Shown piece by piece: positions 28,572 to 28,671 of a stretch of DNA of 43,067 nt. The notes beneath the pieces were generated by a model. That model had not been told where the DNA came from, ran no database searches, and was given only the letters and a program-made list of their open reading frames with translations. The stretch is taken from positions 1 through 43,067 of the IMG/VR virus record IMGVR_UViG_2657244961_000008. One strand, given 5' to 3'. A program made the position numbers and the translations under genes. Every line of letters begins with the position of its first letter. The stretch's first letter is position 1. The DNA comes from a virus. Lineage: Duplodnaviria; Heunggongvirae; Uroviricota; Caudoviricetes.

Positions 28572-28594
28572 AAAAAAACCCGTCTGGTGACGGG
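28572..28594 (-). terminator. tR'-like intrinsic terminator downstream of the late promoter
   Basis: Stem CCCGTC/GACGGG (28579..28594) followed on the minus strand by T7 (plus A-run 28572..28578). Confidence 0.6.
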
Positions 28595-28631
28595 CTGTAA
28601 AAATCCTTCTAACGTCAGGCATAAAACGCCC

Positions 28632-28671
28632 ATCGTTAGTGCGAATTTACCACGGATTCGGGAAAAATCAA
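28632..28671 (-). promoter_or_regulatory. late promoter pR' with qut-like pause element
   Basis: Minus-strand TTGATT (-35, 28671..28666), 16-nt spacer, TAAATT (-10, 28649..28644), then CGCACTAACGATGGG. This closely parallels the lambda pR' sequence TAAATTTGACTCAACGATGGG as recalled. Confidence 0.6.

Follow-up and report, generated by a model that had tools for sequence, protein, structure and literature searches.

Positions 28,572 to 28,671 of a 43,067-nucleotide (nt) IMG/VR virus record (IMGVR_UViG_2657244961_000008, Caudoviricetes), which is referred to at its full length as the window, very probably hold the pR'/qut/tR' late-gene switch of a lambdoid prophage with a long-armed Q antiterminator of the lambda family. 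Such a cassette consists of the Q gene, the late promoter pR', a Q-binding element, a sigma-dependent pause element, the terminator tR' and the late genes (definition from PMC9388147). A sequence-only reading had placed a promoter, a pause element and a terminator after Q and left the strand unstated. Inspection of the sequence located every one of these motifs at the positions it had given, and all lie on the minus strand (Table 1). The elements in the sequence, a geometry exactly like that of lambda, the assignment of Q to a family and the pattern of conservation were observed directly, and the core of the cassette shows no departure from known late switches of the lambda type.

The -35 hexamer begins at the 6th base past the Q stop codon, in agreement with the earlier statement that it lies 6 nt after that codon. 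A GC-rich hairpin lies 35 nt on from the pause hexamer AACGAT and its GGG. The start site (+1) was set at 28637 by analogy with lambda, and all leader positions were counted from there. On this numbering, the stem of the terminator occupies +42 to +61, with the last T of the run at +66, which predicts, if initiation is as in lambda, a leader about 63-67 nt long; this is close to the 50-65 nt at which a terminator had been noted. The scrunched pause of lambda has the consensus T14-N15-Y16-G17 (PMC9191641), and its match in the window, T15-A16-T17-G18, predicts by the same analogy a paused RNA of 17 nt. The region had also been described as almost identical to the initial transcribed sequence of lambda. 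This description held for the pause element, in which AACGATGGG is identical, and failed for the 6 nt that precede it. Because these intervening bases match lambda at 1/6 only, the likeness is limited to the pause element.

The gene upstream of the promoter is, as judged from its sequence, that of a lambda-Q-family antiterminator. The protein matched PF03589 with 176.6 bits (cut-off 26.7; E 1e-52), and this Pfam family is the lambda-Q family, separate from the Q21 and Q82 families (PMC9388147). Among solved structures, lambda Q (PDB 7ubm/4mo1) aligned to residues 1-113 and 182-273 (E 1e-39 for 7ubm). A 68-amino-acid (aa) insert, residues about 114-181, is located where the zinc-ribbon 'arm' of lambda Q begins. 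It is zinc-finger-like, with two further CxxC motifs that bring the total to four, as in the two-zinc domain of DnaJ; the profile of that domain (PF00684) scored 30.9 bits, below its cut-off of 32.7. Alignment of the window Q with 13 homologues found the long arm in 12 of the 14 proteins, phi80 included, with lambda and P22 as the short-armed exceptions. Long-armed Q proteins are annotated as 'molecular chaperone' in some records.

Conservation of the promoter elements among phages with the same type of Q, a point on which the sequence-only reading had staked its proposal, was checked in 80 IMG/VR loci with Q 93-98% identical, supplemented by a pattern scan in which the pause region was unconstrained. 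The elements were conserved in the distinct copies obtained, which numbered from 38 (alignment) to 54 (hexamer tally). Among the 38 aligned copies, the -35 TTGATT and the TG of the extended -10 were unchanged, the -10 had a single variant (TAAGTT), and the hairpin and T run were kept throughout (38/38), with variation in the loop sequence. One base pair of the terminator stem was U-A in the window, C-G in 35 relatives and U-G in two relatives (L001 and L100). The spacer TTTCCCGAATCCGTGG was nearly invariant among the close relatives, and the 6-nt segment that follows the -10 occurred in 13 versions among the 54 distinct copies. The pause hexamer of the same 54 copies was found as AACGAT, AATGAT, AAAGAT, GATGAT, AATAAT, AACAAT, AACTAT and AATTAT; changes were confined to positions 1, 3 and 4, and A2, A5 and T6 were constant. 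A2 and T6 are the hexamer positions most strictly read by sigma region 2. Such a pattern would be expected of a hexamer read by sigma region 2. GGG was retained in 53/54 copies.

The same layout was found next to more diverged Q genes. In a set of named phages with Q homologues 29-62% identical, the -35 and -10 were present in HK225, mEp237, phiEt88, FSL SP-016, ST104, phi80, SfV, Fostie, P22 and others, as well as in phages of Providencia, Pantoea and Yersinia. Most of the named phages had a NANNNT hexamer 3-7 nt downstream of the -10, usually followed by GGG; the hexamer of phi467 was ambiguous, and mEp554 had no such intergenic region. A hairpin and T run were identified in all of them except mEp554. 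A second set comprised 80 genomic loci, each species being represented by one genome and most belonging to Enterobacterales. The strict pattern of -35, -10, hexamer and GGG was found in 33 of the 80, compared to 1.1 in shuffled sequences, and by inspection most of the remaining loci showed the layout with slightly altered hexamers. AACGATGGG was exact in 32/81 loci, and a terminator followed the pause element in 75/81. Predicted leader length had a median of 65 nt and was mostly 55-72 nt, in a distribution whose tail is inflated by a few regex mis-assignments; the window was assigned 65 nt, and lambda, at about 194 nt, was an outlier. This tight clustering spans genera and unrelated terminator sequences. 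Judged from these predictions, a short leader is the norm for the family and no peculiarity of the window phage.

Two variations on the layout were observed within the family. In the Fostie-type Q clade (L262-L263, L274, L291-L300 and L097), the -10 TATGCT lies only 3 nt from a pause-like hexamer (AATCGT, CATCGT, GATTAT or AATCAT), which is followed by GGG, GGA or AGG. With a 3-nt gap the hexamer would straddle the start site, and the geometry of sigma re-capture must differ from that of lambda. Four loci from Dryocola, Symbiopectobacterium and Pectobacterium (L225, L233, L256 and L276) have a long leader with GAGGCGG(C/T)GCT...CCGCC(T/A)AG, a part that is clearly homologous to an internal section of lambda 6S RNA. 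Since these loci encode long-armed Q proteins only 36-53% identical to the window Q, the long leader of lambda type circulates regardless of the Q subtype.

The spacer between the promoter hexamers is the putative site of Q binding. The spacer motif TTTTCCCGAA(T/A)CTGTG was kept in HK225, mEp237 and phiEt88 and was exact in prophages of Enterobacter, Yokenella, Dryocola and Erwinia, and copies 1-3 bases off were found in Chimaeribacter, Kalamiella and Serratia. The Q proteins paired with this motif are only 50-62% identical to the window Q. The helix LDTWKKSVK is common to the Q proteins of HK225 and phiEt88, the two such homologues aligned, and Q proteins with other recognition helices occur with other spacer sequences. 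Because the motif is kept with the shared helix and differs with other helices, the Q-binding element was placed in the spacer. The spacer is conserved far beyond the ordinary needs of a promoter spacer and occupies the position of the annotated Q site of phi80, and from these comparisons we infer that it is the Q-binding element.

Several points weigh against a late switch of the lambda type. A generic promoter scan of 27500-30000 at a threshold of 9/12 reported no site, because the predicted promoter, TTGATT-16-TGgTAAATT, scores 8/12 on its hexamers, in addition to the TG of its extended -10. Mean identity of the close relatives across the cassette stretch is 88%, and much of the invariance could therefore be recent common descent; terminator co-variation among these relatives amounted to one compensated pair only and was not significant. 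The TTGACT docking site for sigma region 4 is absent, as CGCACT, together with the preceding TT, matches TTGACA at 2-3 of 6 positions. Given this absence and the lack of constraint on the segment, Q loading may differ in detail from that of lambda; TTGACT beside the pause element characterises lambda and P22 and is not family-wide. Finally, an IS10 element lies inside the late operon and may mark the prophage as defective, which would leave the identity of the element unaffected and bear perhaps on its relevance.

The missed promoter, along with terminator-like sites that were not enriched around the cassette (4 found, 2.8 expected by chance), would fit an account in which the hairpin only ends the Q-bearing early transcript and the promoter-like and pause-like motifs are chance resemblances. 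This account is highly improbable. As a composite motif, TAAATT-N6-AACGATGGG has a single occurrence in the 43-kb window, where 0.09 are expected even with 2 mismatches allowed. It stands exactly where it does in lambda-Q-family cassettes, the substitutions spare the sigma-contact positions, and diverged Q genes of many genera are followed by the same layout. Since the generic scans were uninformative, the case for the late switch rests on position and conservation.

The mechanism established for lambda was used as the model for this switch (PMC9388147, PMC9191641), and the start site, the pause, the binding of Q to the spacer, termination and read-through are all taken from lambda, phi80 and P22. 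On this model, host sigma70 RNA polymerase would initiate at ~28637 from the predicted promoter, and sigma region 2 would re-bind the non-template strand of AACGAT (+1 to +6), aided by GGG. The polymerase would scrunch and pause at TATG with an RNA of 16-17 nt. Without Q, escape would be slow, and termination at the hairpin and T7 would release the leader of about 63-67 nt. Q produced from the early operon would bind TTTCCCGAAT in the spacer, dock on the paused complex and travel along with the polymerase. The Q-modified polymerase would then ignore tR' and later terminators across a late operon of roughly 28 kb, which contains, in order, the 65-aa open reading frame (ORF), the methylase, IS10 and the lysis, terminase, head and tail genes. 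In lambda, the Q arm touches sigma region 4 as well as the distal part (one half) of the Q site. Two of the differences from lambda, the missing TTGACT and the much larger Q arm, likely matter.

The transcript of the pause element may also act as RNA, in that its first 4-7 bases would pair with bases at about +20 to +30 and form a 5'-terminal hairpin across the family. We propose this tentatively and regard it as slightly short of an even chance, on the basis of leader sequences and predicted folds. The leader of the window (+1 to +68) has a minimum free energy (MFE) of -22 kcal/mol (z = -3.1) and folds as a 5' hairpin followed by the terminator hairpin. In the 5' hairpin, AACG (+1 to +4) pairs with CGUU (+24 to +27) around an inner stem of GGGCGU/AUGCCU. 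Throughout the lambda-Q family, the 5' hexamer is complementary to a segment whose end usually falls within +22 to +31, and changes in one go with changes in the other. The pairs are AACG/CGUU (lambda, P22 and the window), AACA/UGUU, AACAAU/AUUGUU, UAGUG/CACUA, UCGUG/CACGA, GAUUAU/AUAAUU, AAUCAU/AUGAUU and AAGGAUG/CGUUCUU.

This complementarity was assessed in 84 distinct leaders representing 21 hexamer classes (L004, L085-L099, L221-L300 and the window), in which the hexamers were located by upstream features only. The best-helix score was 10.8, compared to 8.29 +/- 0.25 with the downstream sequence shuffled. Pairing with the leader's own downstream sequence exceeded cross-class pairing in 19 of the 21 hexamer classes, and permutation among class representatives gave p = 2e-4. 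Control 7-mers, namely one from untranscribed upstream sequence, the reversed 7-mer and an internal one, all had lower pairing scores. The ViennaRNA probability that +1 to +6 pairs downstream was 0.59, compared to 0.33 +/- 0.024 in shuffles, and a class-swap test with the same program gave p about 0.001. As a point against the hairpin, alignment of 21 diverse leaders with MAFFT followed by RNAalifold predicted zero pairs, because the 3' strand is out of register between leaders; alignment-free permutation and folding tests were therefore used.

If the hairpin is real, the 5' end shared by the short leader and the long late transcript would be selected for structure, possibly for RNA stability, for clean folding of tR' or for a small-RNA function. 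It would further offer a testable reason for the uniform leader size and place an RNA-level constraint on an element studied only as DNA. The signal is possibly a new observation, as no description of a late-leader 5' hairpin was found in a limited search of the searchable literature. It also bears on the suggestion that the ~65-nt leader is a stable structured small RNA (sRNA) with a function of its own, either Hfq-dependent regulation in trans, like StxS, or protection of the leader and late mRNA by the 5' hairpin. Such a function would supplement the switch rather than replace it, and we consider it less likely than not. The predicted leader has the parts that it would need, namely the 5' hairpin, an A/U-rich single strand (UAGAAGGAUUUUUACA) and a terminator with U7, and both the family-wide pairing and co-variation of the 5' end (permutation and folding tests above) and the tight 55-72 nt clustering of leader length across genera are consistent with it. 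There is precedent in StxS (PMC7547250) and in lambda 6S RNA, which was found on Hfq, with targets (bioRxiv 10.1101/2024.10.31.621285). On the other side, the leader had no Rfam 15 family match at the gathering score or at E <= 10. Three further points count against an own function and against the hairpin itself: in close relatives the hexamer changes AACTAT, AACAAT and AAAGAT are uncompensated downstream, some family members (ST104 and L254) are predicted to fold otherwise, and the complementarity of the 5' end could reflect a DNA-level constraint.

Known small RNAs were considered as the identity of the leader. A search of 28300-28800 against Rfam 15 gave no family at the gathering score, and the best sub-threshold matches (E 0.16-7) were to unrelated families. 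STnc100 and PasD sRNAs have been linked to PF03589 Q genes in a 2026 preprint. They were ruled out as the leader, since the STnc100 of phage Evi is located ~1.2 kb past Q and the window has no STnc100 match. PasB and IS009, located among structural genes, are likewise unrelated. In phage Evi (L002), STnc100 (RF02076, 119.9 bits) occupies 4329-4515, just before the holin and downstream of a matching Q/pR' cassette.

A coding role for the leader was also rejected. A 123-aa ORF (28251-28622, minus strand) begins with an ATG at +16 and runs through the terminator in frame with the 65-aa ORF. In relatives, this frame stops after 17-25 codons. In a Providencia homologue a stop codon precedes the MLKQ start, and of the two ATGs the one at 28448 has the better ribosome-binding site. 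The match to phrog_331 was 159 bits with the extension (profile positions 2-98) and 129 without it, and translation from a GTG at 28571, directly past the T run, could yield 106 aa. The upstream extension of the 65-aa ORF is probably not real, although the stretch 28449-28570 is conserved.

Downstream of tR', the late operon begins with the 65-aa ORF and the methylase, and past IS10 the lysis, terminase, portal, capsid and tail ORFs continue on the same strand down to about position 1. Located upstream of Q are DicF, a sok/hokD module, a DUF968 gene and RusA. The Rfam matches to IS009, sok and DicF fit the backbone of a Qin-like lambdoid prophage.

Table 1 Features of the late-gene cassette and its surroundings in the window, with cassette elements in order of transcription.
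Feature	Coordinates	Strand	Basis or remark
Q antiterminator gene, 273 aa	28677-29498	minus	PF03589, PDB match, phrog_127 'anti-termination protein Q-like'
Q stop codon TAG	28679-28677	minus	followed by TGTTG
-35 of pR', TTGATT	28671-28666	minus	4/6 match to TTGACA
16-nt spacer TTTCCCGAATCCGTGG	28665-28650	minus	putative Q-binding element; core TTTCCCGAAT at 28656-28665
TG of extended -10 (TGgTAAATT)	28652-28651	minus	sequence; invariant in alignment of close relatives
-10 of pR', TAAATT	28649-28644	minus	same as lambda pR'
Variable 6-nt segment between -10 and pause element, CGCACT	28643-28638	minus	sequence
AACGAT, predicted sigma70-dependent pause element (-10-like)	28637-28632	minus	equals lambda +1 to +6
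GGG after pause element, discriminator-like	28631-28629	minus	sequence
CGTTTTATGCCTGACGTTAGAAGGATTTTTAC	between GGG and terminator hairpin	minus	sequence
TATG, +15 to +18	28623-28620	minus	fits T-N-Y-G consensus of scrunched sigma-dependent pause
Predicted 5'-terminal leader hairpin	28637-28611	minus	MFE fold and family-wide co-variation
tR' hairpin AGCCCGTC-ACCA-GACGGGTT	28596-28577	minus	terminator scan and fold; stem of 8 bp, 5 of them G-C, with loop ACCA
T7 run of tR'	28578-28572	minus	sequence
65-aa ORF	28251-28448	minus	phrog_331; first gene past tR'
DNA methyltransferase	27048-28100	minus	next downstream
IS10 transposase ORF, 402 aa	25421-26629	minus	between methylase and lysis genes
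RNA-OUT	26622-26691	plus	Rfam; within IS10 region, about 25400-26700
IS009	41-239	minus	Rfam
sok, with hokD	31523-31694	minus	Rfam
DicF	38512-38563	plus	Rfam

The terminator coincides with a boundary in phage similarity. The 161-nt region of the cassette had matches in 1,658 of 5,426 complete E. coli genomes, and similarity among phages switches exactly at the terminator (28572-28596; L001-L003 and L005-L084). One Q/pR'/leader unit is joined to at least 5 different downstream modules. An E. coli JP538 prophage has a cassette 98.8% identical to that of the window, followed by tRNAs, holin, lysozyme, terminase, portal and capsid, and in the Stx2a phage Stx2_EH1910, tRNAs and stx2AB come after the cassette, 65-aa ORF and methylase. 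Conversely, in phiP27 and many Stx2 phages the shared sequence begins only at the terminator, and their Q differs. As similarity breaks at the terminator, tR' is a mosaic junction. At the position of IS10, relatives carry tRNAs, stx2 or holin.

The IS10 insertion between the methylase and lysis genes raises the alternative that the cassette is a relic in a defective prophage, its elements intact and in control of nothing useful any longer. The tRNA or toxin cargo of relatives is absent from the window, and no identical copy was found among the 5,426 complete E. coli genomes (best 98.8%), both of which would agree with decay. Yet the Q ORF retains its full length and shares 92.7-96.3% identity with Q from two sequenced phages, Evi and Stx2_EH1910, every element agrees with the conserved consensus, and on the ORF map the downstream ORFs for head, tail and lysis are long and uninterrupted. 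Polymerase modified by Q should also, by the established mechanism, transcribe across IS10. A relic is thus improbable.

The late switch described here is of the textbook kind, and its chief value lies in annotation. This type of cassette is very common in E. coli, as the genome counts above indicate, and in at least one Stx2a phage it heads the stx2AB operon, so that it would mark the start of toxin and lysis transcription and a short RNA expected in the lysogen. Lambda itself is atypical of the family, as a long arm on Q and a leader of ~65 nt are found in most relatives.

Short RNAs from late promoters are long established for lambda, 21, phi80, 82 and P22 (reviewed in PMC7547250). StxS, one such RNA, is short and constitutive, originates from an antiterminated late promoter after Q and is an Hfq-dependent regulator; it belongs with a 144-aa Q clade (PMC7547250). 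The window encodes a 273-aa Q of the lambda family and differs from StxS phages in this respect, but its type of Q likewise heads stx2 operons, as in Stx2_EH1910.

One close parallel is lambda (NC_001416), with a late promoter of TTGACT-17 nt-TAAATT-TGACTC-AACGATGGGTTAATTCG. The two share a PF03589 Q that aligns over its N-terminal and C-terminal halves, the -10 TAAATT, a 6-nt gap followed by the identical AACGATGGG (AACGAT and GGG), an intrinsic terminator before the late genes and a 5' AACG able to pair with CGUU ~20 nt downstream. In contrast, lambda has TTGACT as its -35, a 17-nt spacer and GG at the extended -10 position, whereas the window has TTGATT, 16 nt and TG. The lambda spacer with its Q site, TATTGAATAAAATTGGG, is unrelated to TTTCCCGAATCCGTGG, and TGACTC, which supplies the sigma-region-4 docking site TTGACT, stands in place of CGCACT. 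In the window the T-N-Y-G motif is shifted downstream by one base, the end of the terminator falls at about +66 rather than +194, and Q carries the 68-aa arm insert with two more CxxC motifs. P22 also has a lambda-Q-family antiterminator (the gene 23 protein), and its GenBank record annotates a late promoter, qut, a start point and tR' 30-58 nt downstream of the start. It equals lambda in TAAATT-TGACTC-AACGAT and differs from the window in its short-armed Q (207 aa), its lambda-type Q site, its TTGACT and GGA in place of GGG.

The long-armed Q of phi80 (gp17, 269 aa) is 41% identical to the window Q in the alignment (39.9% by tblastn), and the annotated Q site of this phage, TCGCGGA, lies 2 nt after the -35, where the window has TTCCCGA. 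A -10-like hexamer with GGG again stands early in the transcribed region, and the GenBank pR' and first terminator, ~50-80 nt after the -10, give a short leader. The hexamers of phi80 differ (-35 TTGCAT, -10 TAGATT, pause hexamer AACGCT 7 nt past the -10), as does the recognition helix, KKTAAYEQLQ compared to TLDTWKKSVK in the window, along with the sequence of the Q site. The nearest diverged relatives are HK225, mEp237 and prophages of Enterobacter, Yokenella, Erwinia and others, with Q 50-62% identical. HK225, mEp237 and most of the genomic loci L222-L230 have AACGAT and GGG at the distance found in the window, and the group shares the spacer motif TTTTCCCGAA(T/A)CTGTG and a terminator that would give a leader of ~56-62 nt. 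They differ in their -35 (TTTACT) and -10 (TAATTT), and beyond the pause element their leader and terminator are unrelated to those of the window.

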